Shown: positions 1,143 to 23,423, counted from the first letter of the stretch. The stretch is DNA of 60,408 nucleotides from an uncultured Pelagibacteraceae bacterium (GCA_902611715.1 CACMAQ010000004.1:1-60408); one strand, 5' to 3'. Translations and numbers: made by a program. Notes: generated from the sequence alone by a model not told the origin.

Positions 1143-1147
1143 ACTGA

Positions 1148-1191: not shown

Positions 1192-1235
1192 TCAAAATAA
1201 TTTATTTACGATTCTAAACCTTAATGGAGAAAATA

Positions 1236-2297: not shown

Positions 2298-2313
2298 AAG
2301 ACTTGATTAATCC

Positions 2314-2346
2314 ACAACTGAGGCAAGTTATGCTTGTCTCAGTTGT
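2314..2346 (+). terminator. Intercistronic stem-loop after pstS
   Basis: acaactgaggcaag-ttatg-cttgtctcagttgt, 14-bp stem with one GU pair. Confidence 0.7.
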
Positions 2347-2368
2347 TGAATAAGCATTATGGTGAAGC

Positions 2369-5036: not shown

Positions 5037-5044
5037 AATAGAAT

Positions 5045-5806: not shown

Positions 5807-6498
5807 TGAGTGAACACATAGTTTCATCTTATGATGAGCAATTAGATTTAATAAATAGTACATTAATTAAAATGGGAGGATTGGTTGAAACACAGCTTCA
5901 CAATTCTCTTGTTGCTTTGGGTGATAAAGATACTGCTTTTGCAGAAGAAATTTTAAGAGATGATAATAAAATAGATGCCTTAGAAAAGGAAATTGATGCT
6001 TTAACATACAAAATAATTGCAATGAGGCAACCGCTTGCTAATGATTTAAGAACCGTACTTTCGGCACTAAGCATTGCAAACGATCTCGAGAGAATGGGTG
6101 ATCACGCTACCAATATTGCAAAGAGAGTTGCGAATGTAAAAATAAACATGCCCGACACACCAGTTTCAGAAATTGTCAATATGGGTGAGAACGTTCAAAG
6201 AATGATAAAAAATGTTTTAGATGCCTTCGTTCAAAAATCAGATACGCTAGCAATTAATGCTTGGGATTTAGACGGCGATATTGATGAATTGTATTTATCA
6301 ATTTACAGGGATCTTCTTAAGACGATGGCAGAAGACCCAGATACAATTACAGGCTGTTCACACTTATTGTCGATTGCTAAAAACATAGAGAGAATAGGAG
6401 ATTATGTTCAAAATATTGCTGAAGACATTCACTTCATTACAACTGGTCAAGCCTTAGAACGTAAGTCGGAAAAAAGAATTAAGTGGGAAAAGGTGTAA
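5806..6498 (+). CDS. phoU: Phosphate signalling protein PhoU
   Basis: Two PhoU repeats (QPLANDLR, LERMGD, IERIGD). Confidence 0.95.
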   Translation: MSEHIVSSYDEQLDLINSTLIKMGGLVETQLHNSLVALGDKDTAFAEEILRDDNKIDALEKEIDALTYKIIAMRQPLANDLRTVLSALSIANDLERMGDHATNIAKRVANVKINMPDTPVSEIVNMGENVQRMIKNVLDAFVQKSDTLAINAWDLDGDIDELYLSIYRDLLKTMAEDPDTITGCSHLLSIAKNIERIGDYVQNIAEDIHFITTGQALERKSEKRIKWEKV

Positions 6499-7184
6499 TG
6501 AAACCTAAAATCCTAGTAATTGAGGATGAAGTCTCAATAGTTGAATTATTAAAATACAATCTCACAGCTAGTGGATTTGATGTAGACGTATGCTTTGATG
6601 GCGATAGCGCATTGGATAGTATATTTGGTGATATTAAATACGATCTCATAATCGTTGACTGGATGCTCCCAAATATTTCTGGGTTAGAATTGTGTAGACG
6701 AGTACGTAAAGATAAAACTACAAAGAACATTCCTTTAATTATGCTCACAGCTAAAGGAGAAGAAGAAGATAAATTAAGAGCATTTGAAACTGAAATTGAT
6801 GACTACATAACAAAACCATTTTCAGTCAATGAGTTAGTAGCAAGAATTAAAGCAGTACTTAAACGCTTAAGACCTATTTTTTATAATGAAGTTCTTACGT
6901 ATAAGGGAATTCAATTAGATGTTTCAACGCATCGTGTCACCAGGGATAAAACAGAAATAAGTCTTGGACCTACGGAATTTAATTTATTGCGTTTTTTAAT
7001 GGAAAATCAAGGTAAAGTATTTTCAAGACAACAATTATTAGATTATGTATGGACTACAAGTCCATATGTCGAGCCTAGAACAGTTGATGTTCATATCAGA
7101 AGATTAAGAAAAGCATTAAACGAAGGATTTGAATACGACCCAATAAGAACAATTAGATCTGCTGGATATTCTCTTGGTATATGA
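6498..7184 (+). CDS. phoB: Phosphate regulon response regulator PhoB
   Basis: REC domain (DWMLP) plus winged helix (RTVDVHIRRLRK); TAATG coupling to phoU. Confidence 0.95.
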   Translation: MKPKILVIEDEVSIVELLKYNLTASGFDVDVCFDGDSALDSIFGDIKYDLIIVDWMLPNISGLELCRRVRKDKTTKNIPLIMLTAKGEEEDKLRAFETEIDDYITKPFSVNELVARIKAVLKRLRPIFYNEVLTYKGIQLDVSTHRVTRDKTEISLGPTEFNLLRFLMENQGKVFSRQQLLDYVWTTSPYVEPRTVDVHIRRLRKALNEGFEYDPIRTIRSAGYSLGI

Positions 7185-7609
7185 GCATTAAAAATGTTTT
7201 ATATTTATGTACGCAAAATTCAGCCAGAAGCATTATAGCTGAGGCAATTACCAATTATAAATATAGTGAAAGTCTGAAAGGCTATAGCGCTGGTAGCACA
7301 CCTTCAGGAATAATAAATCCTAAAACACTCGATTTATTAGATGATATGAAAATACCGACTGAGAAACTCTATAGTAAAAGTTGGGACGTATTTGGTGAGC
7401 CCAACTCTCCCTCTATGGATTATGTCGTTACTGTGTGTGGAAATGCCGCTAAAGAAACATGTCCGATCTGGCCGGGTGCTCCAAAAACATTTCATTTCAA
7501 TATTGAAGACCCCGTTAAACAGAACTTAAACGAAGTCGATCACAAAAAGTTTTTTAGATCTACATTTGATTATATTGATCAATTAATAAAAGAAAATTTG
7601 CTTAAATAA
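7181..7609 (+). CDS. arsC: Arsenate reductase, LMW-PTP/thioredoxin type
   Basis: CTQNSARS P-loop, TVCGNAAKETCP and EDP motifs; ATGA overlap with phoB. Confidence 0.88.
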   Translation: MSIKNVLYLCTQNSARSIIAEAITNYKYSESLKGYSAGSTPSGIINPKTLDLLDDMKIPTEKLYSKSWDVFGEPNSPSMDYVVTVCGNAAKETCPIWPGAPKTFHFNIEDPVKQNLNEVDHKKFFRSTFDYIDQLIKENLLK

Positions 7610-8248
7610 ATGCCTAAAAAAATACTTTCTGAATATCTGGGTACACTCTTACTTGTTTTCTCGGTAGTAGGATCAGGGATAATGGCCGAAAATCTATCTC
7701 CTACAAATGAAGGTGTTGTATTGCTTGCTAATGCAATAGCAACAGGAGCAATGCTTTACGTGATAATATCAATATTTGGTCCTATATCTGGAGCTCATTT
7801 TAATCCAGTTGTTACACTTTATTTTAGATTTAAATCAGATATTAATAACGTAACGATGATATTATTTATCATTTTTCAACTAGTGGGTGGCACTTCTGGA
7901 GTCATTTTAGCAAATTATATTTTTGATGATTTATTTATTGAATTTTCAACTAAAGAAAGAACAGGAATTAATATTCATGTCTCTGAAGTGGTTGCAACAA
8001 TAGGCTTATTAATTACAATTGTGCTCACACTAAAGGCAAAAAGAGATCCAGCAATAGCGGTGGCTTTATATATAACTGGGGCTTATTGGTTCACATCTTC
8101 AACGTCATTTGCCAATCCAGCTGTCACGATCAGTAGATCATTCACCAACACATTTACCGGTATAGATCCACAGCACGTGTTGATGTTTATTTTTATGCAA
8201 TTAATTGGACTCTTAATTGCATATTTTATTCTTCGATTTTACGATTAA
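7610..8248 (+). CDS. Aquaglyceroporin, AqpS-like arsenite channel (MIP family)
   Basis: SGAHFNPVV and TSSTSFANPA motifs, VVGSGIMA; abuts arsC. Confidence 0.85.
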   Translation: MPKKILSEYLGTLLLVFSVVGSGIMAENLSPTNEGVVLLANAIATGAMLYVIISIFGPISGAHFNPVVTLYFRFKSDINNVTMILFIIFQLVGGTSGVILANYIFDDLFIEFSTKERTGINIHVSEVVATIGLLITIVLTLKAKRDPAIAVALYITGAYWFTSSTSFANPAVTISRSFTNTFTGIDPQHVLMFIFMQLIGLLIAYFILRFYD

Positions 8249-9391
8249 TTATATCGCTTGTCCAGATACCCATACTTTTTTTACTATTGGTAAATTGTTA
8301 TAAATACTGAAACTAACTAGGTCCGCCTTCATGCCGCACTGTATACTACCTCGGTCTAGAAGCTGTGTAGCTATTGCTGGGTTTCTTGAAATAGAGGCAA
8401 TTGCTTTTGGCATATTACCGGACTCTAAACCCCATTTGACAGCTGAAGAAAGTAGGGATGACGGGATATAGTCAGAGCTAAAAATATCAAGGCAATTTTC
8501 GTCTATGAGTTCTTGAGCTGAAATATTTCCAGAATGTGACCCACCTCTCATTAAATTTGGCGAACCCATGATAATTTTCATGTCTTCTTTTTGCGACTCT
8601 TTTGCTGCTTCGATTGTGGTTGGAAATTCTGCTATTGAAACTCCTAGATTTTTTGAACTTAATACATCTTCTATAGTAGTGTCATCATGACTCGCAAGAA
8701 CACATTGAAATCTCATTTGTGCTTCAGATATTTTCTTTATATGTATTTCACTATTTTTTGACTGCAGTGCTTTTAATTTAGAGAAGTGATTTTCCATTTC
8801 TTCATCAGATAGTTGATATTTACCCGCTAAATATTCCTTATATTTATCTGTATTTCTAAATTGTCTTTGTCCCGGTGTATGGTCCATAATGCTTATCATT
8901 TTAACGTTGCTTGATTCATCAAACTCATCAAGTTCACTTGCTAACGTTTCAGATGCGGTTTCTGCACGCAAGTGAATATAATGGTCAATTTTAAAAAGTT
9001 TATTTTTTTTTAAAGTTGAAATTTGGTCAGCTGTTGCTTTAGCATATTTTTTATATTCACCTTGAAGGTTCCCTTTTGGTATCGATCCAACTCTAAGTGC
9101 ATCAAATACCGTGGTTATACCGACGGAAGACAATTCTCTATCATGAGCTAGCAATGCGTTTATAATTGGCCATTCTACTTTTGGCCTGGGTGTTAAATGT
9201 CTTTCGATATTATCTGTATGAAGTTCGATTAAACCAGGAATTAAGAAATCCTTGTTTAAATCGAAAGCAGAATTTCCTGTATAATTTCCTTTACTTAAAT
9301 CCTTTATTATACCGTTTGCAATGTAAACATGGCCCATAAAAGATTCGTCCGGACAAACAATATGGGCATTTTTTATTACAAATTCATTCAT
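8249..9391 (-). CDS. phnM: Alpha-D-ribose 1-methylphosphonate 5-triphosphate diphosphatase
   Basis: ELHTDN, MDHTPGQRQF, SHDD and SSDY amidohydrolase motifs. Confidence 0.95.
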   Translation of the reverse strand: MNEFVIKNAHIVCPDESFMGHVYIANGIIKDLSKGNYTGNSAFDLNKDFLIPGLIELHTDNIERHLTPRPKVEWPIINALLAHDRELSSVGITTVFDALRVGSIPKGNLQGEYKKYAKATADQISTLKKNKLFKIDHYIHLRAETASETLASELDEFDESSNVKMISIMDHTPGQRQFRNTDKYKEYLAGKYQLSDEEMENHFSKLKALQSKNSEIHIKKISEAQMRFQCVLASHDDTTIEDVLSSKNLGVSIAEFPTTIEAAKESQKEDMKIIMGSPNLMRGGSHSGNISAQELIDENCLDIFSSDYIPSSLLSSAVKWGLESGNMPKAIASISRNPAIATQLLDRGSIQCGMKADLVSFSIYNNLPIVKKVWVSGQAI

Positions 9392-9405
9392 ATTTATTTA
9401 ACAAG

Positions 9406-9437
9406 ATATTACTAATTTATTAGATTATTGTTAAAGT
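9406..9437 (-). promoter_or_regulatory. Degenerate Pho-box-like repeats in the phnM/DUF1045 divergent spacer
   Basis: atattac / ttattag / ttgttaa at exact 11-bp spacing (9406, 9417, 9428); AT-rich background weakens the call. Confidence 0.4.
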
Positions 9438-9440
9438 ATT

Positions 9441-10157
9441 ATGACTAATTACAAAAGAGTGGCAATTTACTTTTTGCCTAAAAAAAACTCGAGTTTAGAA
9501 AACTTCGGAAAAAACCTTTTAGGTAGAGATATCAATAAAAAGAAAAAAATATCACTAACAAGACGTCAAAAATATTTTATTAGTAGAGGTTTTACATTCT
9601 TTGATGAACTTAAAGACTATTGTGAACAGCCTGCAAAGTATGGGTTTCACGCAACATTAAAGGCACCATTTAGACTTAAAAGAAATGTTAAAACAAAAAA
9701 TTTTTATGATGTTATTAGCCATATAGCAGCACAACATAGTAGATTTAAGATACAAGGTTTAAAAATTGTTTATAGTAAAAAATTTACTTTCATAACTAGC
9801 AGAAAACCAAACAAATTATTAATAAACCTTGAGAATGATCTTGTTAAACATCTAGATACTTTTAGGGCAGAGCTAAATAAAACAGAAATAAAAAAAAGGA
9901 TCCCTGATTCTTTAACTATTAAGCAAAACAAATATTTAAAAGAGTGGGGATATCCATTCGTCTTTGATCAGTTTAAATTTCATATGACGCTAATGAACCA
10001 AAATAACAATAAATTATCTAACAAACAAAAATTAGAACTAGAAAAATTAATTTACAAAATATCAAATAATGTAATTGAATTTAATGAAATTAGTTTACTT
10101 GGTGAAAATAAAAATGGCCATTTTGAGGAAATAAAAAGGTTTAAATTAAACTTTTAA
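9441..10157 (+). CDS. DUF1045 phosphonate-cluster protein, probable 2H phosphodiesterase
   Basis: RVAIYF start, YGFHATLKAPF, WGYP and FHMTL (two HxT motifs). Confidence 0.85.
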   Translation: MTNYKRVAIYFLPKKNSSLENFGKNLLGRDINKKKKISLTRRQKYFISRGFTFFDELKDYCEQPAKYGFHATLKAPFRLKRNVKTKNFYDVISHIAAQHSRFKIQGLKIVYSKKFTFITSRKPNKLLINLENDLVKHLDTFRAELNKTEIKKRIPDSLTIKQNKYLKEWGYPFVFDQFKFHMTLMNQNNNKLSNKQKLELEKLIYKISNNVIEFNEISLLGENKNGHFEEIKRFKLNF

Positions 10158-10692
10158 TTAATGCAGTTAAATTCATAATACCTTGATTAATACTGCTATT
10201 ATTTTCTACAAATTTTGTACTTGTTGGTAAATTATAATTTTCTCTTTTTATTCGAGAGTTGATTTCGAATTCGTTCTCTCTTTTTCTATCAAAAATTCGT
10301 TGACTCAATAAATTGCTAGTAGCATTTATGTGTATAACGATAGAAGAGGATATATCATATAATATATTATTTATATATTCTCTAGATCCAGCAAATATTA
10401 TGTTTTTTCCATCTTTAAGATCGTCAATTGCATCTTTGTGAATACCATAATTGCAATTATTTGCATTCCATGTTGTACAAAATAAATTTTCACTCTTCAT
10501 TTGTGTAAATATTTTTTCATCAATAGGGTTATAGTCTTCATTAATATCTATTTTAGTTCTTGTAATGTATCTTTTGATCGCCTTTAGATTATCGATATTT
10601 TTACAGGCTCCATTTATAAGGGTATTTTTACCAGATCCTGATGGACCTAAGACGATAAAAGCCTTGCCGTTTCTTTTAATGCTTTGTTTCAA
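10141..10692 (-). CDS. phnN: Ribose 1,5-bisphosphokinase
   Basis: GPSGSGKNT P-loop, RYITR and YGI motifs; follows phnL. Confidence 0.85.
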   Translation of the reverse strand: MKQSIKRNGKAFIVLGPSGSGKNTLINGACKNIDNLKAIKRYITRTKIDINEDYNPIDEKIFTQMKSENLFCTTWNANNCNYGIHKDAIDDLKDGKNIIFAGSREYINNILYDISSSIVIHINATSNLLSQRIFDRKRENEFEINSRIKRENYNLPTSTKFVENNSSINQGIMNLTALIKSLI

Positions 10693-11350
10693 TGTTTAGA
10701 TCAATCTCTCTTACATTCAACTTTTTTCGAGAATATTCGTCATGAAAGATTCCAATAATTGATACGCCTCTATTAGATTTCGCTTTAATTAAATTGATAA
10801 TTATATCACGATTTCTACTGTCAAGACTTGCAGTTGGCTCATCGAGTAACAAGTAAGGAAGGTCTTTTATAAAACCTCGTGCGATATTAATTCTCTGTTG
10901 CTCGCCCCCAGAAAAAGTTAGCGGAGATAAGTGCCACAAATTCTTCTCAATATTTAAGTCCTTTAAAAGTTTTATCGATTTTTTATAAGCATTATTTTTA
11001 TTATCACCTGAATTTAATAATGGTTCCATTATTACATCTAAAGCAGAAATACGGGGTATCACTTTTAAAAATTGGCTCACATACCCAATTGAAGTTTTTC
11101 TAAGTTTAAGTATTTCCTGAGCCGATAGAGTGGCAATATTTTTATTATTTATAATTATAGCACCCTTATCAATTATATAACTTCCATAAATCATCTTTAA
11201 AATACTTGATTTACCTATGCCTGATGGTCCTTTAAGGGCTACAATTTCACCTGGATTAACCTCAAAATTTAAATTTTTAAAAACTGTTATCTTCGCGTTA
11301 TTTTGGTTAAATAAAGTAAACGATTTATTAACTTTTTTTACCTCAATCAT
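10676..11350 (-). CDS. phnL: C-P lyase ABC-type ATPase PhnL
   Basis: GPSGIGKS, YVSQFL, TFSGGEQQRINIAR and IFHD motifs. Confidence 0.95.
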   Translation of the reverse strand: MIEVKKVNKSFTLFNQNNAKITVFKNLNFEVNPGEIVALKGPSGIGKSSILKMIYGSYIIDKGAIIINNKNIATLSAQEILKLRKTSIGYVSQFLKVIPRISALDVIMEPLLNSGDNKNNAYKKSIKLLKDLNIEKNLWHLSPLTFSGGEQQRINIARGFIKDLPYLLLDEPTASLDSRNRDIIINLIKAKSNRGVSIIGIFHDEYSRKKLNVREIDLNIETKH

Positions 11351-11351
11351 A

Positions 11352-12122
11352 TTAAACGTGTAACACCGAACTTACTAATAGCTGTGTATATTCTTGCTGA
11401 GGATCTTCAAGTACCTGATCGCTTAAACCAGACTCGATTACAGTACCGTTTTTCATGACAATCATTTTATCTGCAAGTAATCTGATAACGGCTAAATCAT
11501 GTGATACAATAATTACTGTAAGGTTCAACTCATTAACAAGTGATCTTATCAAATCAAGAACACGAGCTTGAACTGAAACATCTAGCCCACCAGTTGGTTC
11601 ATCCATAAAAATAACATTTGGGCTTGTTATTAGATTTTTTGCTATTTGAAGTCTTTGAAGCATTCCACCTGAGAAAGTAATGGGTAGATCATCAATTCTA
11701 CTTTTGTCTATTTCAACTTTATTAATCCATTTTGTTGCTAAGCTTCTTATATTTCCATAATGTCTATAGCCAACAGACATTAATTTTTCGCCTATATTAC
11801 CACCTGCTGATACATTTAATCTTAATCCGTCACGTGGGTTTTGATGAACAAAAGCTAAATCTGTTCTAATAAATTTTCTTTTCTCTGACTCTGATATATT
11901 TAAAAAGTCGGTTTCTTTGTTGTTAATATTGAAAATTATTTTTCCTCTATCAGGCTCAAGATTGCCGGATAAGCAGTTAATTAAGGTTGTTTTACCGGAA
12001 CCAGACTCACCGACAATGCCCAATACTTCACCTGGATATAGTGACATTGAAATATTTTTACATCCAACAATATTATCATAAGATTTGCTTAAATTTGTAA
12101 CTTTTAAAAGAGGGATTATCAT
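11352..12122 (-). CDS. phnK: C-P lyase ABC-type ATPase PhnK
   Basis: GESGSGKTT, QNPRDGLR and DEPTGGLDVSVQA motifs. Confidence 0.95.
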   Translation of the reverse strand: MIIPLLKVTNLSKSYDNIVGCKNISMSLYPGEVLGIVGESGSGKTTLINCLSGNLEPDRGKIIFNINNKETDFLNISESEKRKFIRTDLAFVHQNPRDGLRLNVSAGGNIGEKLMSVGYRHYGNIRSLATKWINKVEIDKSRIDDLPITFSGGMLQRLQIAKNLITSPNVIFMDEPTGGLDVSVQARVLDLIRSLVNELNLTVIIVSHDLAVIRLLADKMIVMKNGTVIESGLSDQVLEDPQQEYTQLLVSSVLHV

Positions 12123-13009
12123 TTATTTTTTCTTTTATTACAAAAATCTGTATCTGAGCAAATAAAAGATTTATTTCCCGCATCATCAACAATAATTTCA
12201 TCTAAATATGTATTCTTTGATCCACAAATATCACATGCGTGTTCAGCTTTAAATGGGTCAAATGGGTAGTCTTCAAAATCGAGACTTTTAACTTTTGTAT
12301 ATGGTGGAATAGCATAAATTCTTTGTTCTCTTCCAGCACCAAATAGCTGTATCGCTGGTGAGTTATTCATTTTAGGATTATCAAATTTTGGTATTGGGGA
12401 TGGATCCATTATATAACGATCATTAGTTTTTACTGGATAAGCGTAAGCGGTTTCTATATGCCCATTTTTTGATATATCTTCATAGAGCTTTACGTGCATT
12501 GCGCCATATTCGGAAAGAGAGTGCATTTTTATTGTTTCAGATACTTTAGGTTCTAGAAAGGCCAAGGGTTCAGGGATGGGTACCTGATAAACAAATATTT
12601 GTTTCTTTTTTAATGGTGTTTCAGGAATTCTATGTCTAGTTTGTATCAGTGTTGCTTTTTCAGTAATTTCAGTAGTTTTAATATTTGAAGTTTTTTTGAA
12701 AAAATTTCTTATTGATACAGCGTTGGTAGTATCGTCAGCTCCCTGATCTATTATTTTTAAAGTGTCTCTTTTTGTTAAGCAGCTCGCAGTAACTTGGACT
12801 CCACCTGTTCCCCATCCATATGGCATAGGCATTTCTCTAGAGGCAAAAGGAACCTGATAACCTGGAATACATAAAGCTTTTATTATTGCACGTCTTATCA
12901 TTTTTTTTGTATTCTCATCTAAATACGCAAAATTATATTCTTGATCAAAAGGTAGACCTTTGTCTACTTTGAAATCTTTAATCTTAATTACGTTATTTGT
13001 TTTTCTCAT
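12119..13009 (-). CDS. phnJ: C-P lyase radical SAM subunit PhnJ
   Basis: YNFAYLDE, PYGWGTGG and CxxC..C..C (CDIC, ICSDTDFC); start moved to ATG 13009. Confidence 0.97.
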   Translation of the reverse strand: MRKTNNVIKIKDFKVDKGLPFDQEYNFAYLDENTKKMIRRAIIKALCIPGYQVPFASREMPMPYGWGTGGVQVTASCLTKRDTLKIIDQGADDTTNAVSIRNFFKKTSNIKTTEITEKATLIQTRHRIPETPLKKKQIFVYQVPIPEPLAFLEPKVSETIKMHSLSEYGAMHVKLYEDISKNGHIETAYAYPVKTNDRYIMDPSPIPKFDNPKMNNSPAIQLFGAGREQRIYAIPPYTKVKSLDFEDYPFDPFKAEHACDICGSKNTYLDEIIVDDAGNKSFICSDTDFCNKRKNK

Positions 13010-14063
13010 ACTCTTTACGAATTCTTCTAACCAATTCCAGCTCTGATTGAAAATCAACATAATGGGGTAACTTTAAATGTTCCAAAAACCCAGTTGCCTG
13101 TATATTATCACAATGTGACAATACAAACTCTTCATCCTGAGCAGGAGCTCCGACAAACTCTTCACCAATTTCTTTCCACCTTAATGCCCTATCGACTAGG
13201 GCCATTGATACTGCCTTTCTTTCTAATTGACCAAATGTCAATCCATATCCTCGTGTAAATTGTGCGGGTGTTTTTTTGCTTCCTTGAAATTGATTTACAC
13301 TTTCGCACTCAGTAACAATTATTTCTGCAATATCGATCTCAATGTCTAATTCTGGAATGTTGTACTTAACTTTTACATAACCAATTCTTAATTCACCTAC
13401 AAAAGCATGATTTCTAGCGTAGCCTCTTTGAGTTGAATAAGCTAAAGCAAGAAGAAATCCTTCATCGGCTCTAGAAAGTGATTGTAACCTCTCACTTCTA
13501 TTAGCTGGAAACTCAAGTGGATTTCTTGTGATGTCTTTTGGCTGATAATTATTATTTTTTTCTTTTTGAATAAGGCCTTCTTTATTTAAAAATCTCAGTA
13601 CGTGAGGTATTTTTTCCTTTAATACTTTTCGTTTTTCTGCCTTAGGTATATTGCCTTCAGCCAGTAAACTAAAGTCTAAAAGTCTGTGTGTATAATCAAA
13701 TGTAGGCCCCAATTTTTGTTTTCCGGGAATATCTTTATAAGTTGCTGAGATTCTTCTCATGCATACCATATCTTCTGTTTTAATAGGGGGGGATGTTCCA
13801 AATCTTGGTAGAGTTGTACGATAGGCCCTGATTAAGAAGATGGCTTCAATAAGGTCACCTCTTGATTGTTTTATGGCGAGAGCTGCTAGATCAGTATCAT
13901 ATAATGATCCTTCTGACATGACCCTTTCAACAGACAATGTCAACTGTTCTTTAATTTGATCAATTTCGAGGTTGGGAACATTAACATCACCTCTCCTTAT
14001 TTCTGAAAGCCAATTATGAGCATTTTCAATTGCTTTTTCACCACCTTTAACAGCTACATACAT
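12993..14063 (-). CDS. phnI: C-P lyase complex subunit PhnI
   Basis: MYVAVKGGEKAI start; KLPHYVDFQSEL C-terminal motif. Confidence 0.97.
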   Translation of the reverse strand: MYVAVKGGEKAIENAHNWLSEIRRGDVNVPNLEIDQIKEQLTLSVERVMSEGSLYDTDLAALAIKQSRGDLIEAIFLIRAYRTTLPRFGTSPPIKTEDMVCMRRISATYKDIPGKQKLGPTFDYTHRLLDFSLLAEGNIPKAEKRKVLKEKIPHVLRFLNKEGLIQKEKNNNYQPKDITRNPLEFPANRSERLQSLSRADEGFLLALAYSTQRGYARNHAFVGELRIGYVKVKYNIPELDIEIDIAEIIVTECESVNQFQGSKKTPAQFTRGYGLTFGQLERKAVSMALVDRALRWKEIGEEFVGAPAQDEEFVLSHCDNIQATGFLEHLKLPHYVDFQSELELVRRIRKEYEKNK

Positions 14064-14068
14064 AGAAA

Positions 14069-15056: not shown

Positions 15057-15060
15057 ATTA

Positions 15061-15090
15061 ATCTATACAACTATACAAGTATACTATACT
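15061..15090. promoter_or_regulatory. Candidate PhnF (GntR/HutC) operator
   Basis: Repeated ctatacaa-ctatacaa-gtatac-tatact (TGTATAG-like half sites) between divergent phnG and phnF. Confidence 0.55.
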
Positions 15091-15143
15091 TATTATGACG
15101 ATTCGTTTCAATTTATTTATTAAAAATATGTTACAATAGCTAA

Positions 15144-15845: not shown

Positions 15846-17057
15846 TTATTTGTGCATTTGATTTGTAGGTTTCTCGAAAATTATTAGTGAGAAAGAAAAC
15901 GCTGATAGGATTGCAGTTGTTACAATCGTAATCGTAAATAAGTTTAAATTATACGCAAAAAGAAGTGCACCTAATGCTGGACCTACGGCAAAGCTAATGC
16001 TCCTTGAAAGGGCCATCCACCCTTTAGCTTGGCCATAAATTTGTGACTCAAAATACATATTGGTGACATAACCATATGTTATTGTTAAAACACCGTGACC
16101 CATTCCGAAAAAAGCCATACTAATTGCGGCAACAAAAATATTATTTGTAAATTGAGCTGTAAAAATTGAAAAAATTACAAACAAAAAGGCTATTAAGCCT
16201 GTATATCTTGCGTCGTAATGCTTTCCAATTTTCATTTCCAAGTATCTTCCTACAAGTTGAAACGGGCCATATATACTCGCAAGTACAACCGCGATACTAA
16301 TGTCATTAAATGTTTCTGTAAAAAAATTTACTAATGCAAGGGTAAATGCTACAAAAAAGAAATTTTGTAAAGAAGAGGATATTGTAATATAAAAAAATGA
16401 TTTCTTTTGTGTCTTCTTTAGCTCATTCCAATTAAATAATAACTTGCTTTCATTTAAGTATTCTATATTTGATTTGTATTTCATTTCCTTTGAGGACACA
16501 AGTACATAGCCAATTAATAAAATAATTGAAGTAAATAAACACGTATAGAATAAACCTACATTGTATATAAGTGGATAAATTGAAAGCCAGGTAATAGTGC
16601 TTGCTACCGCTCCATAAAAAGTAATTATTGAAATATTTTTTCTAGAATTGATTTCATCCATTTGGACTGCCGCATTAAACGCTACCTCATAGGTTGACAT
16701 ACCAAGCCCCAAGGTAATTAGAAACATAGAAATAAACACCCACAATACATTTTTGAAAATAAATAAATCAATCTCTGTTATTCCAATAAAAATTGAGCCT
16801 ATCATACCTAATAACAGGCCGTATTTAATTACGATTAGGCTTCCATGATGGTCTGACCATTTTCCAATCCGAGGCGCTAATAGGGCTTGAAATAACAGTG
16901 CTAAACTAAACATTGTGAGAATTAATTCCTCACTTAAATTGGTGTGCAGTGAGATATACTCTTTTAATGGGGCAATAGTATAGAATAAAAATCCGTAACC
17001 AATGATTGTTACAATTCCAATAGTATGAACAGGAAATAAACTATTATTTTCTTTCAA
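15846..17057 (-). CDS. MFS transporter, ArsK-like subfamily
   Basis: ~12 TM; IIGYGFLFY, APRIGKWSD, ASTITW and GPFQLVGR motifs recall ArsK-type MFS. Confidence 0.7.
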   Translation of the reverse strand: MKENNSLFPVHTIGIVTIIGYGFLFYTIAPLKEYISLHTNLSEELILTMFSLALLFQALLAPRIGKWSDHHGSLIVIKYGLLLGMIGSIFIGITEIDLFIFKNVLWVFISMFLITLGLGMSTYEVAFNAAVQMDEINSRKNISIITFYGAVASTITWLSIYPLIYNVGLFYTCLFTSIILLIGYVLVSSKEMKYKSNIEYLNESKLLFNWNELKKTQKKSFFYITISSSLQNFFFVAFTLALVNFFTETFNDISIAVVLASIYGPFQLVGRYLEMKIGKHYDARYTGLIAFLFVIFSIFTAQFTNNIFVAAISMAFFGMGHGVLTITYGYVTNMYFESQIYGQAKGWMALSRSISFAVGPALGALLFAYNLNLFTITIVTTAILSAFSFSLIIFEKPTNQMHK

Positions 17058-17152
17058 CTTGATGCCTGTTTAGTATTTGTTTTTATAAGTCATTGAATAA
17101 ATTTGTTATTTTTACAATAGTTAAAAAATAGATTGTTTACCAATTTTTAAAT

Positions 17153-17191
17153 ATTACAAAAATGTTAAGAAATATTACAATAATATTACAT
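17153..17191 (-). promoter_or_regulatory. Pho-box-like array facing the MFS gene
   Basis: attacaa / gttaaga / attacaa / attacat at spacings 11, 10, 11 (minus strand: ttgtaat-type units). Confidence 0.55.
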
Positions 17192-17534
17192 GAAACGATT
17201 CGTACTTTTAATGTTCATTTTTAAAATTCTGCTGAGCACAAACATCTATGCTGACGACTTTAAGAGTTGTATAGCTTACTTTCAAAACACTTCATCTCTA
17301 GAAATAGGGTACGATGAGACAATAATTAATTGTGAAATATATTTTAATACTCATCCTAGCAGTAACTTCAATGAGTATAGTCTTTGTATGTTGCAGAATA
17401 TTAAATCAGCTAAAAATATTGATGATTATTTTTATGAGTCAGACCAATGTGTGATTAATCACTGTTCTTCTAATATAGAAACTTTTTTTAATGGTAGTGA
17501 TCCTGGCTTTTGTACGTTATTAGAAGAGGTGTAG
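17190..17534 (+). CDS. Secreted hypothetical protein with six cysteines
   Basis: Signal peptide ending IYA-DD; two C-x20-C repeats. Confidence 0.7.
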   Translation: MKRFVLLMFIFKILLSTNIYADDFKSCIAYFQNTSSLEIGYDETIINCEIYFNTHPSSNFNEYSLCMLQNIKSAKNIDDYFYESDQCVINHCSSNIETFFNGSDPGFCTLLEEV

Positions 17535-17972
17535 TTAAAAAATCTGCCACCATGACTTTTCTTTTTCATTTTCTGTCTCTTCTTGCAGTTCGTCTGACTC
17601 ATTAACAATTCCAATTCTCATATCTTGTCCGGCAACATTGCCTTCTCTCGCTATAGTTTGAGCCTCTTTCAATTTCATTTTTGCAAGGACGTTTTGATTT
17701 TTATTACACAATTCCATTCCTTCAAGCATTAAATTATGTGCTTTCGTTGCTGAATCTGGGTCAGCTCGCTGTATATCGTTTTTAATTGATCCACGGAGCG
17801 TTAATATACTTAAATCTTCACAGTTTCCTATATTGCTCTCGTATGTACTTTCAGTATTGGTAGAATAGTCACTTCCAGCTTGCCCAATTGTATTGTCTTC
17901 ATGACTGTCTGCAAGAGCAAGAGATGATAACATGTACGACGTTATTAAAAAGAATTGAATAAATTTGGTCAT
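17535..17972 (-). CDS. Secreted acidic hypothetical protein
   Basis: Signal peptide ending ALA-D; two Cys; C-terminal KSWWQIF. Confidence 0.75.
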   Translation of the reverse strand: MTKFIQFFLITSYMLSSLALADSHEDNTIGQAGSDYSTNTESTYESNIGNCEDLSILTLRGSIKNDIQRADPDSATKAHNLMLEGMELCNKNQNVLAKMKLKEAQTIAREGNVAGQDMRIGIVNESDELQEETENEKEKSWWQIF

Positions 17973-18024
17973 AATTAATTGTACAAATAGATTGTTAAAA
18001 AAATATTAAGATCTCAAAAAAAAA

Positions 18025-19434
18025 TTATTTTTTTGCCATTTTTGCCAATTGTAATTCTGCTCCTAGCGTTTCATCACCAATCAAAGCTCTTCTTACTTTT
18101 GCGGACATTGTATCCATGAAAATAACAACTCCTAAAATCAATAATGACATATACATAACATTTTCCCAACTGGTACCCGTATTTATTGCTCCAAGTAATT
18201 GTAAACCTATGCCGCCTGCGCCCATGGCACCTATAATAACAGCTCCTCTCGTGTTTGATTCTAAGTAGTAAAGAGTTTGGGAAATAAAAATAGGAAGTAT
18301 TTGAGGTATAATTCCAAATCTGTGTTGAAGAGTTTTATTCGCTCCCGTAGACTCTACACCTTCTTGTTGCTTTTCTTCAGTGTTTTCTATTGCTTCAGAC
18401 ATTAATTTTCCAAGAGTTCCTGTATCTGTAATTGCAATAGCAAATATTCCAGTAAATGGTCCTGGTCCGAAGGCTCTTAAAAAAATTAAGCTCCAAATCA
18501 AAAAATCGATGCCTCTTAATGTATCAAATAACCGTCTTAATATCGTTCGAACAAATTTAAAAGGCGTTACATTGTAAGCTGCAAAAAATGCCAGAGGAAA
18601 ACCCAGAAGAGCTGCTAGTAGGGTGCCCAATAGAGCCATAAAAATTGTCTCTAATAAAGCCCACAATATTTGTCCATGATGCCACATATCATTATTTAGA
18701 AATTCTTGAATTAGAAGCGAAAAATTTGAAATATTGGGGTCAACTCTATCGCCTGAGAATGAAAGTGAAATAGCATTCCAAATTCCATATGGTTCTAAAG
18801 GACTGTCAAAGTCAAACCAGAAATAGTTCCAACCAAGATTGTACCTATGTACTTCAACTTTTTTTGAATAAACTTGAACTCTTTCGTAAAGAGATGGTCT
18901 AACCTCTATTTTATTTTCCGTTACCCTTATCCATTTTGGGAGATTATCTACATTTTCAACGTAAGGCTTACCTTGTGCATCAAGACGAAAAACAAGTGTT
19001 TCTTTGGTGTCTGGCCAGTTTTCTATTGTAACTTTATCATCGTATAGATTTGCAAACCCTCCATTTTTAAAACTTATTTTTGTTTCACCCTCTGGACCTA
19101 TGGAAGTCCATTCAGGATACCTTTCTGGAAGACCGTCACTTTTTTGATAGGGGCCAACATACTGAGACCACCTGCTTCCTTCAAAGGATATAATTATATC
19201 ATCTGGTTCACTCCATTTCATTGTGACATGGTCTTTATGTGCATATGTGTCGAGGGCAAACAAAGAAGCTCTTTCAGGACTCCATTTTTTATGAATCTGC
19301 AATATGTCGAGGCTTAAAATTGCTATGATTAAATACACTATAATCCCGAGCACTAAAAAAGTTGACCACATTTTAGATGAAAATTTAGTAACTACTATAT
19401 CTGAATAATTTTTAATAATTTCAGACCTGTTCAT
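18025..19434 (-). CDS. phnE: Phosphonate ABC permease PhnE with long N-terminal periplasmic insert
   Basis: GTLGKLMSEAIE, ESNTRGA and GAGGIG motifs; ATGA coupling to the upstream phnE. Confidence 0.92.
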   Translation of the reverse strand: MNRSEIIKNYSDIVVTKFSSKMWSTFLVLGIIVYLIIAILSLDILQIHKKWSPERASLFALDTYAHKDHVTMKWSEPDDIIISFEGSRWSQYVGPYQKSDGLPERYPEWTSIGPEGETKISFKNGGFANLYDDKVTIENWPDTKETLVFRLDAQGKPYVENVDNLPKWIRVTENKIEVRPSLYERVQVYSKKVEVHRYNLGWNYFWFDFDSPLEPYGIWNAISLSFSGDRVDPNISNFSLLIQEFLNNDMWHHGQILWALLETIFMALLGTLLAALLGFPLAFFAAYNVTPFKFVRTILRRLFDTLRGIDFLIWSLIFLRAFGPGPFTGIFAIAITDTGTLGKLMSEAIENTEEKQQEGVESTGANKTLQHRFGIIPQILPIFISQTLYYLESNTRGAVIIGAMGAGGIGLQLLGAINTGTSWENVMYMSLLILGVVIFMDTMSAKVRRALIGDETLGAELQLAKMAKK

Positions 19435-20297
19435 GATTTCAATCCTATTAATGATTTTCGCCAATAACTTGATAAGTAATCCAATGCAATGATCGTAGAC
19501 ACAAGTAAAAACATTATTGCAATAGTGTCAGCTTCATATTTCCACTGTATATTAGTGTAAAGTTGCTCACCGATACCTCCAGCGCCAACAAATCCCAAAA
19601 TAGTTGAAGCCCTTATATTAATCTCAAATCTTAAAATTGTGTAAGTTAGAAATAGAGGGAGTGCCTGAGTTACCACACCAAATCTTATTCTGGTAAACCA
19701 TGAAGCTCCACAGGACTCAAGACCTTCAATTGGATTTTTGTCGACATTCTCAATAGCTTCTGAAAACAATTTGCCAAGAGCTCCTGCGGTATGAATTATG
19801 ATGGCAATTACAGCAGGCAGTGCTGACTTTCCCAGTAGATACAACAAAACAAGCGCAATAACTAATTCTGGAAACGATCTGCATATATCCATGATGCGTC
19901 GAAATATTAATACAGTAGTTTTACTTTTGATTAGATTACGACTTGAAAAAATACTTAAAAAAAAGGCTAGCAACGTACCCATTGCTGTTGAAAATAGAGC
20001 CATATTAATAGTGCTTATTAAATCTGGAAGGTATTCAAGTAACAATAAATTCCATCTATAGCCGTATTCCCATGACCCAACAAATAGATCAACTGGGTAA
20101 TCGAAAAATTTAGGTAATCCAACCCAGATGCTAGTCGCATTTCCTGTTTCTGCTACAATTAAACCCGAATAAATAACTGCTATCAATGCCGCAATTGAGA
20201 GAAAAGAATAAATTGATCTTGTTCTTGTAAGAGATTTTAAATTATTTTCAATTTTAATTAAATTTTCTGGCAATGATGATTGCACTGTTTCCTCCAA
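19431..20297 (-). CDS. phnE: Phosphonate ABC permease PhnE
   Basis: GALGKLFSEAIE and RFEINIRASTILGFVGAGGIG motifs. Confidence 0.93.
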   Translation of the reverse strand: MEETVQSSLPENLIKIENNLKSLTRTRSIYSFLSIAALIAVIYSGLIVAETGNATSIWVGLPKFFDYPVDLFVGSWEYGYRWNLLLLEYLPDLISTINMALFSTAMGTLLAFFLSIFSSRNLIKSKTTVLIFRRIMDICRSFPELVIALVLLYLLGKSALPAVIAIIIHTAGALGKLFSEAIENVDKNPIEGLESCGASWFTRIRFGVVTQALPLFLTYTILRFEINIRASTILGFVGAGGIGEQLYTNIQWKYEADTIAIMFLLVSTIIALDYLSSYWRKSLIGLKS

Positions 20298-20305
20298 ATA
20301 GACAA

Positions 20306-20344
20306 CTAACTAAGAGGATGGGGCATGCCATCCTCTTAAGTTAG
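20306..20344 (-). terminator. Intercistronic stem-loop after phnD
   Basis: taagaggatgg / ccatcctctta inverted repeat, extended by ctaac/gttag. Confidence 0.7.
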
Positions 20345-20361
20345 CAAACAACTACCGAAAT

Positions 20362-21321
20362 TTATTCGGCTTTTTTAGCTTCAATTTTAGCTTTACGAGC
20401 AGCTACAATAGTTTCATAGAAACTATGGTCGACTGGCACCCAAGCTTTAACAACTCCATTTGCAACATTCTCGCTGCATTGTGGGTCATTTTCATGGATC
20501 CACTGCTTCATGCCTACCATGACCTGATGCGCTCTCACAGGCATATTAGTTGGCATTACAATCGGTCCATTTGGTATCAAAGCAGATGACCAAATCTGTT
20601 TGATGTCATCCATATTTAATAGTCCTTTATCAACCATTTTTCTCAGATTTCCAGAAGAGTAACCTTCGCTCCATTCACCAACTCCAGATACCCATGTCAC
20701 ACCTGCATCGATATCACCATTAAGAACTGCCAAAACGTTATTTTCATGACCACCTGAAAATTGTGTAGAGCCAAAGTATGAGTCTGGATCCATTCCTGCA
20801 GCTTTTAATTCGATTGATGGTATTAGATAACCAGATGTTGAATTAGGATCAGCCCATCCAAAAGATTTACCTTTTAAATCATCAAGTGAATTGATACCCG
20901 AGTCTGATCTTGTAACCATGACTGAATAATAGCCCATATCTCCTGTTGGCTGCATTCTGGTTAAAATTGGTACAGTAGCGGTAGGATCTTCTAGATATAT
21001 ACCCGCATATCCTGATGAGCCGAACCAAGCATAATCTAAGCTGCCACCAAGCATTGACTCCATTGTTCCTGCATAATCTTTAAAAGTATAAATTTTAGCT
21101 GGTACTCCATATGCAACTTCCGCATATTCCTTTAGACATGCATTATTCTTAATAATGTCTTGAGCTGATTCATCGCCTAAAAATCCAAGTCTCATTTCAG
21201 GTTGATATTTACTCAAGTCCATTGTTGGCCCTTTATAGCCAGATACATCCCATGCGTATGCATTTGCAGACACGAAAAGGAATGAACAAGCAATAATAGA
21301 CCTTACTAAATTTTTAATCAT
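20362..21321 (-). CDS. phnD: Phosphonate ABC substrate-binding protein
   Basis: Signal peptide; GYYS, DPNSTSGYLIP, SGGHE and IPNGP motifs. Confidence 0.93.
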   Translation of the reverse strand: MIKNLVRSIIACSFLFVSANAYAWDVSGYKGPTMDLSKYQPEMRLGFLGDESAQDIIKNNACLKEYAEVAYGVPAKIYTFKDYAGTMESMLGGSLDYAWFGSSGYAGIYLEDPTATVPILTRMQPTGDMGYYSVMVTRSDSGINSLDDLKGKSFGWADPNSTSGYLIPSIELKAAGMDPDSYFGSTQFSGGHENNVLAVLNGDIDAGVTWVSGVGEWSEGYSSGNLRKMVDKGLLNMDDIKQIWSSALIPNGPIVMPTNMPVRAHQVMVGMKQWIHENDPQCSENVANGVVKAWVPVDHSFYETIVAARKAKIEAKKAE

Positions 21322-21373
21322 TTTTAGTATATCTCCTTGTTAGTTGTTAAGTTTTTTTTTGAAAAGGCTAACA

Positions 21374-22177
21374 TTATCCTGCCTCTGCAAACTGTTCGTC
21401 ACCAAGTGAAGTTGAAGTAACTGTTGGTTCAAATGCTTCTTCAGCTTCAGCGCCATAAATTTCTCTAGCAACATCATCTTTTAAACTTGAAGGTACATCA
21501 TCAAAAACAATTTCCCCAAGTCTCATGCCAATGATTCTGTCACAATAATTTTTAGCGGTATCAAGAGTATGAAGATTTGCAAGAACAGTAATCTGCTTTT
21601 CTCTATGAATATTTCTAAGTGATTCCATTACAAGTCGGGCATTAAGAGGGTCTAGCGATGCAATAGGCTCGTCGGCTAAAATCATTTTTGGTTGCTGCAT
21701 CATAGCTCTACAAATTGCAACCCTTTGTTGCTGTCCACCAGATAAAGTCTCTGCTCTTTGCAGCGCGGTTTCAGCCATTCCCAATTTATCCAGAGCCATC
21801 AATGCATCAACGCGTTCATCTTTAGTGAAAAGTTTTAAGCTTGATCGTAAAGTACCTTGAATATTTGATCTTCCAAGAATTACATTTGTTAAAACATCTA
21901 AACGGGGCACAAGATTGAATTGCTGAAATATCATGGCACAATCTTTTTGCCATGCTCGTTTGTCTTTCTTTGTTAATGAAAGTATATTTCTGCCTTCAAT
22001 AAAAATAGATCCACTAGTTGCGTCGGTTAGACGATTCATTATTCTCAGTAATGTTGACTTTCCAGCACCAGATCTGCCAATGATACCAATCATTTCAGGT
22101 TTATTAATTTCAAATGTGACATCGTTTACTGCACGGTTGTCACCAAAATACTTATTTAATTTCTCTACTTTGATCAT
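21374..22177 (-). CDS. phnC: Phosphonate ABC ATPase
   Basis: [24 protein letters not shown] and DEPIASLDP motifs; start moved to ATG 22177. Confidence 0.95.
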
Positions 22178-22216
22178 TAGTATGAATAAAAAGTAATACA
22201 AAAAAATTAAATCAAA

Positions 22217-22266
22217 GTTGCATTTTTATTACAGATATTTTGCAATTTATTACACTAATGTTACAG
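22217..22266 (-). promoter_or_regulatory. Pho box array upstream of phnC
   Basis: Minus strand ctgtaac-atta-gtgtaat-aaa-ttgcaaa-atat-ctgtaat-aaaa-atgcaac: five units at ~11-bp period. Confidence 0.8.
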
Positions 22267-22311
22267 CTCAAATTATTGACATTAAAGAAAATATAATTAA
22301 TCATTTAATTC

Positions 22312-22911
22312 ATGCAATTAGATAAAATCCAATCTCTAGAAAATAAATTAAATTCAGCTTCAATTATTGAGCGTACCAATGTTTTATGTGAAATTATTGA
22401 TCAAAGAGGTTCGTGCAGTTTTTATGACGAAGAGATTACTCAATTACAACATGCTCTTCAGTGCGCAACCTTAGCTAAAGAAAATAATGAAAGTGATAAA
22501 TTTATTACTGCTTCAATATTTCACGATTTAGGGCATATGTTGACTGGCGAAGATGTAAATAGCCATGATTTTTTAAACAATGACAAGTATCATGAAAACG
22601 TTGCTGCGTCTTTTTTATCCAAGTATTTCCCTGAAGAAGTTACTTACCCAATTAAAATGCACGTTATTGCAAAGAGATATCTATGTTCCGTTCAATCAGA
22701 TTATTATGACGGTCTTTCAGATGGCTCCAAAAGAAGTTTTAAACTTCAAGGCGGATATTTAAACAAAGATGCTATTCGAAAACTGGAAAGTCATAAATAT
22801 TTTGAAGATGCAGTAAGACTTCGAAAGTATGATGACAATGCAAAAATTAGGGGAAAGAAAACTGAAGCTATTTCATTCTTTCATCCTTTTATTAAAAAGT
22901 CCTATATTTGA
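22312..22911 (+). CDS. phnZ: HD-domain diiron oxygenase, PhnZ/TmpB family
   Basis: Y..E, QHALQ, HDLGH, HE, HVIAKRYL and DD.AK ligand motifs all present. Confidence 0.75.
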   Translation: MQLDKIQSLENKLNSASIIERTNVLCEIIDQRGSCSFYDEEITQLQHALQCATLAKENNESDKFITASIFHDLGHMLTGEDVNSHDFLNNDKYHENVAASFLSKYFPEEVTYPIKMHVIAKRYLCSVQSDYYDGLSDGSKRSFKLQGGYLNKDAIRKLESHKYFEDAVRLRKYDDNAKIRGKKTEAISFFHPFIKKSYI

Positions 22912-23423
22912 ACTTTACTAAAATAAAGCTTTCGAAAATTGTTAAAGCAAAAAAAAATCTTGGTAATTTGGTTATATCCAGTTGTCCAGGTATCAGTAAT
23001 TCTAGATTTGATAAATTTACTTATAAAAAAGATTTAACCATTATCATCGACTTAAATATATTACTCGTTGTTTCATTGATAGAACTTAATGAAATTAGAA
23101 ATTTTGAAATTAATCAGTTCCATAAAGATCTAGAGGAGAAGAATGTTAGGGCCTACAGCATGCCCATAAAAAACTATGGTATTCCAGCTCAGATTAAAAA
23201 AAATGAATATAGTCAAATTATCAGAGATTGTGTTACTCAGTTAGAACTCAATAAAAATGTTTACCTGCATTGTTATGCTGGATTAGGTAGATCTGGAATG
23301 TTTGCTTCACTTATTTTAAAGGCACTAGGACTAGATTCAAACCAATGCATAAATCATGTAAGGAATTGCCGGCCAGGTACAATTGAAACAGAGGAACAAG
23401 AAAAATTTGTAATCAACTTTTAA
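22908..23423 (+). CDS. Cys-dependent PTP/dual-specificity phosphatase (CDKN3-like)
   Basis: HCYAGLGRS CX5R motif, CPG and RPGTIET.EQ; overlaps phnZ stop. Confidence 0.85.
   Translation: MNFTKIKLSKIVKAKKNLGNLVISSCPGISNSRFDKFTYKKDLTIIIDLNILLVVSLIELNEIRNFEINQFHKDLEEKNVRAYSMPIKNYGIPAQIKKNEYSQIIRDCVTQLELNKNVYLHCYAGLGRSGMFASLILKALGLDSNQCINHVRNCRPGTIETEEQEKFVINF

Follow-up and report, generated by a model that had tools for sequence, protein, structure and literature searches.

In phosphate-poor oceans, cells that take up phosphate with high affinity inevitably take up arsenate as well. How is it handled in a genome with a phosphate-scavenging operon and no recognizable arsenic sensor? This question is raised by a 60,408-nucleotide stretch of DNA from an uncultured Pelagibacteraceae bacterium (GCA_902611715.1, CACMAQ010000004.1:1-60408; the window hereafter). 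Here, arsC, a gene for an arsenate reductase of the low-molecular-weight phosphatase (LMWP) type, directly follows the phosphate regulator gene phoB and is itself followed by a gene (aqp) for an AqpS-like channel of the MIP family. The window is a phosphorus island of a SAR11-type (Pelagibacteraceae) genome, low in G+C (about 0.26-0.37), and its source assembly is 60% complete. An initial annotation of this DNA proposed a detoxification circuit triggered by phosphorus starvation, with a transporter and a phosphatase of the phosphonate (phn) cluster extending it to organo-arsenic by-catch. The arsC-aqp core of that proposal is supported; the organo-arsenic extension is not.

The best explanation of the locus is a PhoB-driven, sensor-free, two-gene arsenate detoxification system riding on the pst operon, and we put its probability at roughly three in four. 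As the anatomy of the locus suggests, phosphorus starvation would cause phosphorylated PhoB (PhoB~P) to bind tandem Pho boxes before pstS, and transcription would run on through phoB into arsC and the channel gene (step 1). The induced Pst system would import arsenate as by-catch, as is established for such systems (step 2). ArsC would then reduce As(V) to As(III), a role suggested by its conserved residues and by orthologues in arsR-arsC-aqp-arsH operons (step 3). Finally, As(OH)3 would leave passively through the channel, as in the AqpS pathway of Sinorhizobium (step 4). With no ArsR and no energy-driven arsenite pump, the pair would thus respond to the state in which arsenate uptake becomes a danger, not to arsenic itself. 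Such a sensor-free, pump-free pair under a phosphate regulator would be a minimal feed-forward solution in one of Earth's most abundant bacteria.

Relation to known systems

Part of this system is on record. Giovannoni et al. (2019, mBio, PMC6426599) found LMWPc_ArsC and a downstream AqpS-like aquaporin as the only arsenic genes of SAR11, in most Ia.3 strains. ArsR, ArsB, ArsA, ArsH and ArsJ went undetected there, and ArsK, for which Table S1 has no query, was not searched. In phosphorus-starved HTCC7211 arsC rose 2.3-fold, and dimethylarsenate (DMA) gave no induction. HTCC7211, which has the pair, tolerated arsenate better than HTCC1062, which lacks it, and the frequency of the arsC-aquaporin genes was inversely related to seawater phosphate. 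The same authors speculated that the carbon-phosphorus (C-P) lyase or PhnD may meet methylarsenicals.

The published module, from warm-water SAR11, and the pair in the window are the same two genes in the same order, without ArsR. Because that study reports the pair, the lack of ArsR and the phosphorus induction, the central inference of the initial annotation is essentially published. To call this an under-described system was an overstatement for SAR11, since the module, its phosphorus link and the methylarsenical idea were all in print. What the window adds is therefore mainly operon anatomy. The word phoB is missing from the main text of PMC6426599, and it is the present analysis that contributes the phoB overlap, the Pho boxes, a comparison with ArsR-linked relatives and the three configurations of the island. 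A literature search, mostly without subscription journals, gave nothing on point for Pho boxes at arsC. Nor did the searchable literature yield a published statement of a phoB-arsC operon fusion or a published account of a split between ArsR-type and Pho-box-type arsC-aqp.

The nearest known parallel is the AqpS pathway of Sinorhizobium meliloti (arsR, aqpS, arsC, arsH), reportedly the subject of work by Yang et al. in 2005. Both systems combine an LMWP-type ArsC with a MIP channel that replaces an ArsB or ACR3 pump, so that As(III) exits downhill. The S. meliloti operon, however, has ArsR and ArsH and is arsenic-sensed, whereas the window has neither and its pair is fused to pst-phoU-phoB. 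Phosphate status also bears on arsenic genes elsewhere. Prochlorococcus has ars genes induced by phosphorus starvation, and PhoB/PstS are involved in arsenite oxidation in Agrobacterium and Halomonas. The systems of these three genera share with the window the control of arsenic genes by phosphate status. They keep arsenic-responsive regulators (ArsR, AioXSR), whereas none was found in the window.

arsC-aqp as the last genes of the pst-phoB unit

The genes for PhoR, a TMEM164-like protein, PstSCAB, PhoU, PhoB, ArsC and the MIP channel form one co-directional, tightly packed unit on the plus strand. High-affinity phosphate uptake is encoded at 1224-6498 by pstS (1224-2297), pstC (2369-3760), pstA (3753-5036), pstB (5045-5806) and phoU (5806-6498), with Pfam matches to PBP_like_2, BPD_transp_1 with DUF3708/DUF3333, ABC_tran and PhoU. 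The response regulator gene phoB follows at 6498-7184 (TIGR02154, 301.3 bits, cut-off 296.2), then arsC at 7181-7609 and the channel gene at 7610-8248. From pstS through the channel gene, all genes point the same way.

Neighbouring genes here overlap or abut. The phoU TAA overlaps the phoB ATG in TAATG (6496-6500), and the phoB TGA and the arsC ATG share ATGA at 7181-7184. The ATG of the channel gene (7610) comes directly after the arsC TAA (7607-7609), and its stop abuts the stop of the convergent phnM. Both the arsC-phoB overlap and the abutment of the channel gene on arsC had been pointed out in the initial annotation, and the sequence bears them out.

No terminator-like site was found on the plus strand past 3864 in a terminator scan. 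Between 6498 and 8248, promoter-like matches on the plus strand number two, both weak, one inside arsC (7346) and one inside the channel gene (7992). Across 900-9600 there are 29 promoter-like matches with 37.7 expected, fewer than in shuffles. Matches in this sigma-70 and terminator scan are no more numerous than in shuffled sequence; at the level of sequence it says that no obvious signal splits phoB from arsC, and nothing beyond that.

Assembled metatranscriptomes contain the junctions as well. Contigs from four runs of four studies bridge phoB and arsC, and in two of them arsC and the channel gene too, which is to be read as presence and not as a single transcript. In one run (X1), a single contig of 2612 nt covers 6365-8976. 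A contig of another run (X16) skips 7509-7608.

Pho boxes in the window

Upstream of pstS lie three half-sites, TGTAAT, TGTTAT and TGTAAC, spaced 11 bp apart (1160-1187, plus strand). These tandem boxes mark a Pho-regulon promoter. The pattern derived from them, TGTWAY-N5-TGTWAY, is matched exactly four times in the 60 kb, where 0.30 would be expected, and none of 100 shuffles reached four. Two of the four overlap at pstS. The others are a TGTAAT-N5-TGTAAT dimer 117-133 bp upstream of the start of a major facilitator superfamily (MFS) transporter gene (17174-17190, minus strand) and a dimer upstream of phnC (22249-22265, minus strand). Each match lies in the orientation of its gene. The dimer before the MFS gene bears out the Pho-box-like array noted there in the initial annotation. 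With one mismatch allowed, matches rise to 19 with 9.87 expected, barely above chance (3 of 100 shuffles reached 19), and our Pho-box calls in the window rest on exact matches only.

No site was found directly upstream of arsC, inside phoB. PhoB control of arsC would therefore be read-through from further upstream. We propose arsC and aqp as PhoB-dependent genes that would be induced by phosphorus starvation.

Identity of ArsC and of the channel

ArsC matches Pfam LMWPc with 55 bits (cut-off 23.2) and carries the phosphate-binding loop CX5R(S) as C10-TQNSA-R16-S17. Among solved structures, LMWP arsenate reductases are closest to it (1jl3, E 5.3e-13), and its C86, C94 and D110 align with the Bacillus subtilis ArsC structure 1jl3. 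C10, R16, C86, C94 and D110 are each kept in 51-52 of 53 ArsC orthologues. The protein shares 42% identity with the ArsC that a S. meliloti plasmid encodes in an operon arsR-arsC-MIP-arsH. ArsC is thus probably a three-cysteine, thioredoxin-coupled reductase of the LMWP type, as judged from these residues.

The channel matches Pfam MIP with 87.8 bits and has its two boxes as NPV and NPA, the second within NPAVTISR. It is 48% identical to the MIP protein of the same S. meliloti operon, and is the presumed exit for As(OH)3. Most of the ars-associated MIP clade has a second box of the form NPAVT[IVL]AR, not NPAR; valine replaces the arginine after NPA, and an arginine is kept four residues later.

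No arsenic sensor, and linkage to phoB

The ArsR families HTH_5 and HTH_20 have no match in the window's own genome (60% complete) or in any of five congeners that are 90-100% complete and carry an identical arsC. Both families were matched in all 14 control genomes. The initial annotation had noted the lack of arsR in the window, and the lack thus extends to these genomes. ACR3 and ArsB are likewise missing from the five near-complete congeners, which leaves the MIP channel as the sole candidate exit for arsenite.

Of the family's genomes, 28 of 58 carry arsC and 35 of 58 carry phoB. The order phoU-phoB-arsC-MIP was found in all 24 loci from other genomes of the family, with ArsC alleles that are 68-100% identical. 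The gene overlaps, the lack of a terminator in the scan, this linkage in 24 of 24 loci and the published phosphorus induction support the view that arsC and the AqpS-type channel gene form a structural part of the pst-phoU-phoB transcription unit, as the initial annotation had supposed from the overlaps.

The chromosomal place between phoB (ending at 7184) and a conserved PNPOx-SDR gene pair (PNPOx at 24293) has three main states (loci L240-L249). In the first, found in six genomes, it holds a membrane open reading frame (ORF) alone. In the second it holds arsC-MIP alone, without the phn block (G039, G014 and G013). In the third, which includes the window and many others, arsC-MIP is joined by the 16-kb phn block. 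In a further variant, that of G057, HD-like and phnX-like genes come after arsC-MIP. Because of these states, we tie arsC-aqp to phoB and not to phn.

The island from arsC to phnX (7181-24256) was also compared with 19 loci from other species-level SAR11 genomes (L027-L045). In 13 of the 19 it is 99.2-100% identical in nucleotides in every aligned block, and the neighbouring PNPOx-SDR flank is just 94-98% identical. In some genomes the identities of the proteins encoded along phoU-phoB-arsC-MIP-phnM form a mosaic. From these identities, the island looks like the product of recent cross-species spread by recombination.

ArsR-linked and Pho-box-linked arsC-aqp in other Alphaproteobacteria

Channel orthologues are present in 100 of 400 other alphaproteobacterial genomes sampled. 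About 10 kb was fetched around 97 of these orthologues, from other alphaproteobacterial families. ArsR-like genes were located with a profile built from seven Pfam-confirmed ArsR ORFs and counted within 2.5 kb. An LMWP arsC is adjacent in 53 of the 97 loci and ArsR is nearby in 52. The 53 arsC-aqp loci divide into 35 that are ArsR-linked and 18 that are ArsR-less.

The 200 bp upstream of arsC were scanned for two TGT[ACT]A[CT] half-sites spaced 11 bp apart, with one mismatch allowed. This half-site definition was set after 8 of the 18 ArsR-less upstream regions were known, and with it a dimer is found in 11 of the 18 ArsR-less loci and in 1 of the 35 ArsR-linked ones. The ArsR-less loci hold 13 sites, where 0.42 would be expected when each locus supplies its own background; G308, G177, G401 and G416 are among the genomes with a site. 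A control scan of ORF upstream regions gave a site in 15 of 183 for the 18 ArsR-less loci (those of arsC included) and in 0 of 331 for the ArsR-linked loci. Seven such sites lie in real intergenic gaps of ArsR-less loci, and five of these are arsC's own. Ten of these other alphaproteobacterial genomes were checked at pstS, and 8 have the same pattern upstream of it, usually as tandem copies.

Over all 97 loci, 51 have ArsR, 17 a Pho mark, 1 both and 28 neither. When these labels are placed on the channel tree, parsimony gives nine changes, at least three of them forced by well-supported branches. The channel sequences of small genomes cluster (SH-aLRT 98). All seven deviate in amino-acid composition, and for this reason the cluster is not read as shared descent or gene transfer. 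In small marine genomes the module often neighbours pst-phoB. Of 8 loci from genomes of at most 1.6 Mb, 4 have pst or pho genes no more than 5 kb from the module. In the small-genome relative G085, one strand carries pstCAB-phoU-phoB-arsC and the channel gene is convergent; G068 has a pstS-MIP arrangement, and phoB lies 1.2 kb from arsC-aqp in G166 and 4.4 kb in G305. Five small genomes with a phosphorus-linked module have no ArsR match above the cut-off.

The phosphorus-linked form of arsC-aqp is probably a wider regulatory variant, which seems to turn up again among marine relatives of SAR11. We lean slightly toward a broader view, in which alphaproteobacterial arsC-aqpS has two interchangeable forms that have been switched several times: one senses its substrate through ArsR, and the other is anticipatory under PhoB, by way of Pho boxes or of fusion to pst-phoU-phoB. 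Streamlined marine oligotrophs, SAR11 included, would have settled on the anticipatory, sensor-free form because phosphorus starvation predicts arsenate stress better than ambient arsenic does. If the split is real, arsC-aqp in metagenomes and metatranscriptomes marks phosphorus stress and not arsenic exposure, and the module offers a tractable case of regulator replacement during genome streamlining. The split may matter more widely than the window itself.

The same neighbourhoods bear on whether the pair handles arsenic at all. The LMWP protein and the channel could serve phosphorus metabolism directly, for example as a phosphatase and a channel for glycerol or another small solute. The LMWP fold is shared with protein-tyrosine phosphatases, ArsC lies under equivalog cut-offs, and the channel's substrate is a predicted one. 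In one ArsR-less locus (G416), moreover, the pair is followed by PPK2 and Ppx. This role in phosphorus metabolism is nonetheless highly improbable given that all three redox cysteines and the aspartate are conserved, that ArsR stands beside 35 of the 53 arsC-aqp loci, that ArsH accompanies the orthologues in both named plasmids inspected, and that HTCC7211 is more arsenate-tolerant than HTCC1062 (PMC6426599).

Control of the pair could also differ from what we propose. On this account, the main source of arsC-aqp transcripts would be an internal promoter, constitutive or under some other regulation, and the place of the pair behind phoB would reflect genome compaction, not regulation. SAR11 genomes do pack unrelated genes tightly, as the abutting stops of the channel gene and phnM illustrate, and the weak promoter-like matches at 7346 and 7992 fall within the pair. 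Yet the pair stays behind phoB even where ArsC identity falls to 68%, and it does so in three configurations of the island. In lineages that have arsC-aqp elsewhere, the pair carries its own Pho boxes, which points to selection on Pho control rather than chance packing. An internal promoter as the main driver is therefore unlikely.

Several observations weigh against PhoB-driven arsenate detoxification as the function of the pair. ArsC scores 64.5 bits against an equivalog cut-off of 174.3 (TIGR02691), far below it; this model poorly covers the alphaproteobacterial sub-clade to which the protein belongs. Its C86 and C94 are spaced C-X7-C, one residue longer than the C-X6-C of pI258-type enzymes. 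The channel has NPV as its first box, which is NPA in 81 of 97 orthologues, its clade lacks the usual NPAR arginine, and conduction of As(OH)3 is a prediction. The contigs that bridge the phoB/arsC junction continue into the convergent phnM, and RNA libraries may contain DNA. Just 6 of the 11 Pho-box positives come from the 10 ArsR-less loci not seen beforehand, 7 of the 18 ArsR-less arsC-aqp loci have no Pho site, and 28 of the 97 loci have neither ArsR nor a Pho mark. Lastly, the induction of arsC reported in PMC6426599 is no more than 2.3-fold, which would also fit partial read-through combined with a constitutive internal promoter.

Two loci have further genes next to the pair. In G416 (L173), a Pho box is followed by arsC-MIP-PPK2-Ppx, which places arsenate detoxification and polyphosphate genes in one apparent unit. 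In G452 (L175), a second Pho-box site precedes a calcineurin-like phosphoesterase gene just downstream of the channel gene.

The MFS transporter of the phn block

The MFS transporter gene (15846-17057, minus strand) was described in the initial annotation as ArsK-like. Its best NCBIfam match is indeed ArsK (NF033733), which we take to be an MFS protein for efflux of As(III), Sb(III) and methylarsenite. With an E value of 6e-33 and 114.2 bits, the match stays below the cut-off of 400 bits. The ArsK model has 71 matches across 301 alphaproteobacterial genomes; one of them passes the cut-off, and the window's protein ranks 69th (113.7 bits). In a tree without an outgroup, the MFS protein and its relatives form a clade of 16 rows apart from all 30 ArsK and ArsK-like rows (SH-aLRT 100). 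The single true ArsK nests among the 29 ArsK-like proteins. The likeness holds for the nearest curated family, and the placement in ArsK does not; on the yardstick that the initial annotation itself had set, a place in the ArsK clade, the MFS protein fails. A look-up in the ESM Atlas returned generic MFS clusters only.

Gene neighbourhoods link the MFS gene to phosphonates, and its marine clade is often found beside phn genes. In 19 SAR11 loci the gene is 95-100% identical, the surrounding gene order is the same and phn genes adjoin in every case. Genomes that have arsC-aqp without the phn block lack it. As far as gene content tells, the MFS gene is inherited with the C-P lyase block and not with arsC-aqp. 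Of 61 loci outside SAR11, 9 have a homologue beside genes for the C-P lyase or for PhnCDE, with Litoricola and Oceanospirillales among them. Among 99 ORFs neighbouring MFS homologues (13 of 17 chosen loci), no ars family was found; GDPD and TauD each occur twice in the 13 loci. Pho boxes are not enriched before MFS homologues outside SAR11: of 59 usable loci, 3 have a site where 1.35 sites would be expected, and each of the three overlaps the start codon.

These data bear on a larger claim, that the MFS protein is an ArsK-type exporter of As(III) and methylarsenite, the CX5R phosphatase an arsenic-locus enzyme, and organo-arsenic by-catch also detoxified under PhoB. Besides the ArsK match and the exact Pho-box dimer upstream of the MFS gene, this claim can draw on the CX5R folds, LMWP and Cdc25-type, that reduce arsenate elsewhere. 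Giovannoni et al. moreover speculate on methylarsenicals at the C-P lyase or PhnD, and ArsK was not searched in that study (PMC6426599). The low score and rank, the separate clade, the absence of the MFS gene where arsC-aqp occurs without phn, its phn-linked homologues free of ars neighbours, and the lack of Pho-box enrichment elsewhere speak against it, as do the neighbours of the phosphatase described below. We consider this extension quite unlikely and have dropped the MFS protein as an ArsK-type arsenical exporter.

What the MFS protein shares with ArsK is the fold and the nearest curated family; it differs in its separate clade and in its phn, GDPD and TauD neighbours. We read it as a putative transporter of the phosphonate or organophosphate sphere that would be induced by phosphorus starvation. 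For the MFS protein and the phosphatase together, phosphorus-scavenging functions are more likely than arsenic functions on this evidence.

The cysteine phosphatase and its HD-domain partner

The small phosphatase of the DSP/PTP (dual-specificity or protein-tyrosine phosphatase) type is encoded at 22908-23423 (plus strand), and its start overlaps the stop of a gene for an HD-domain oxygenase of the PhnZ family (22312-22911, plus strand). The oxygenase scores under the equivalog cut-offs (NF052439, 186.4 bits against 300; TIGR03276, 176.1 against 214.6). The phosphatase carries HCYAGLGRS, an intact HCX5R loop. The initial annotation had called it CDKN3-like. The CX5R loop is there and CDKN3 is matched weakly (23.7 bits, cut-off 20.7), but PTP-SAK matches better (46.3 bits). 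The nearest structures are small archaeal protein-tyrosine phosphatases and DUSP23.

The initial annotation also placed this family in gapdh-arsJ loci, which its genomic neighbours do not support. No ars, GAPDH or ArsJ-like family was found near the homologues in 26 loci scanned (33 ORFs in 3 loci and 87 ORFs in 23 loci), and the phosphatase was dropped as an ars-locus family. One LMWPc gene lies near a homologue, in L207, and stands alone.

The HD-then-phosphatase order recurs inside a phosphorus island of G249, an unrelated genome of 1.6 Mb, where the phosphatase gene again follows a PhnZ-like HD gene. The PhnZ-family oxygenase and the small cysteine phosphatase are thus a conserved pair in two distant families (window 22312-23423; L207 6550-7641). 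In G249 the pair adjoins PhoU_div-PHO4, a class-V aminotransferase and an aldehyde dehydrogenase; in the window, no PhnY-like partner stands beside it. In 6 of 23 loci (L185, L186, L188, L193, L200 and L204), a remoter phosphatase homologue (25-33% identity) adjoins an ADP-ribosylglycohydrolase or is fused to one, a hint that the wider family acts on sugar phosphates or ADP-ribose phosphates.

Other genes of the phosphorus island

At the left end of the window, the 3' part of phoR is cut by the contig end (2-379, plus strand; TIGR02966 phoR_proteo, positions 229-332, 127 bits); congeners have a 365-aa frame upstream of pstS in this place. Next comes the gene for the TMEM164-like integral membrane acyltransferase (420-1142, plus strand; TIGR02206, 135.7 bits), of which G002 has a 47% identical copy in the matching place.

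Past the channel gene, the C-P lyase genes phnM, phnN, phnL, phnK, phnJ, phnI, phnH and phnG occupy 8249-15056 on the minus strand, with a DUF1045 gene on the plus strand within the stretch (9441-10157). They are the context of the arsenic genes and not arsenic genes themselves. On the far side of the MFS gene, two small ORFs with signal-peptide-like N-termini lie before phnE (17190-17972), one of 114 aa (plus strand) and one of 145 aa (minus strand), and neither has a match in Pfam or NCBIfam scans. The 114-aa ORF is cysteine-rich. A relative of the 145-aa ORF, at 26% identity, adjoins the MFS homologue in the alphaproteobacterial loci L072, L073 and L079. The phosphonate ABC importer phnE-phnE-phnD-phnC follows at 18025-22201 (minus strand), and phnX lies beyond the phosphatase gene, on the minus strand.

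Between phnG and the MFS gene lies phnF, which encodes a GntR/UTRA repressor (15144-15845, plus strand; TIGR02325, 154.2 bits, cut-off 156.8). The divergent phnG/phnF region (15057-15143) contains just a one-mismatch Pho-box match, at 15119-15135 on the minus strand. PhnF may therefore govern the C-P lyase genes, and PhoB those for the transporters. The same region also contains a GTATAC palindrome with the repeats CTATACAACTATACAAGTATACTATAC around it, a possible operator for PhnF.

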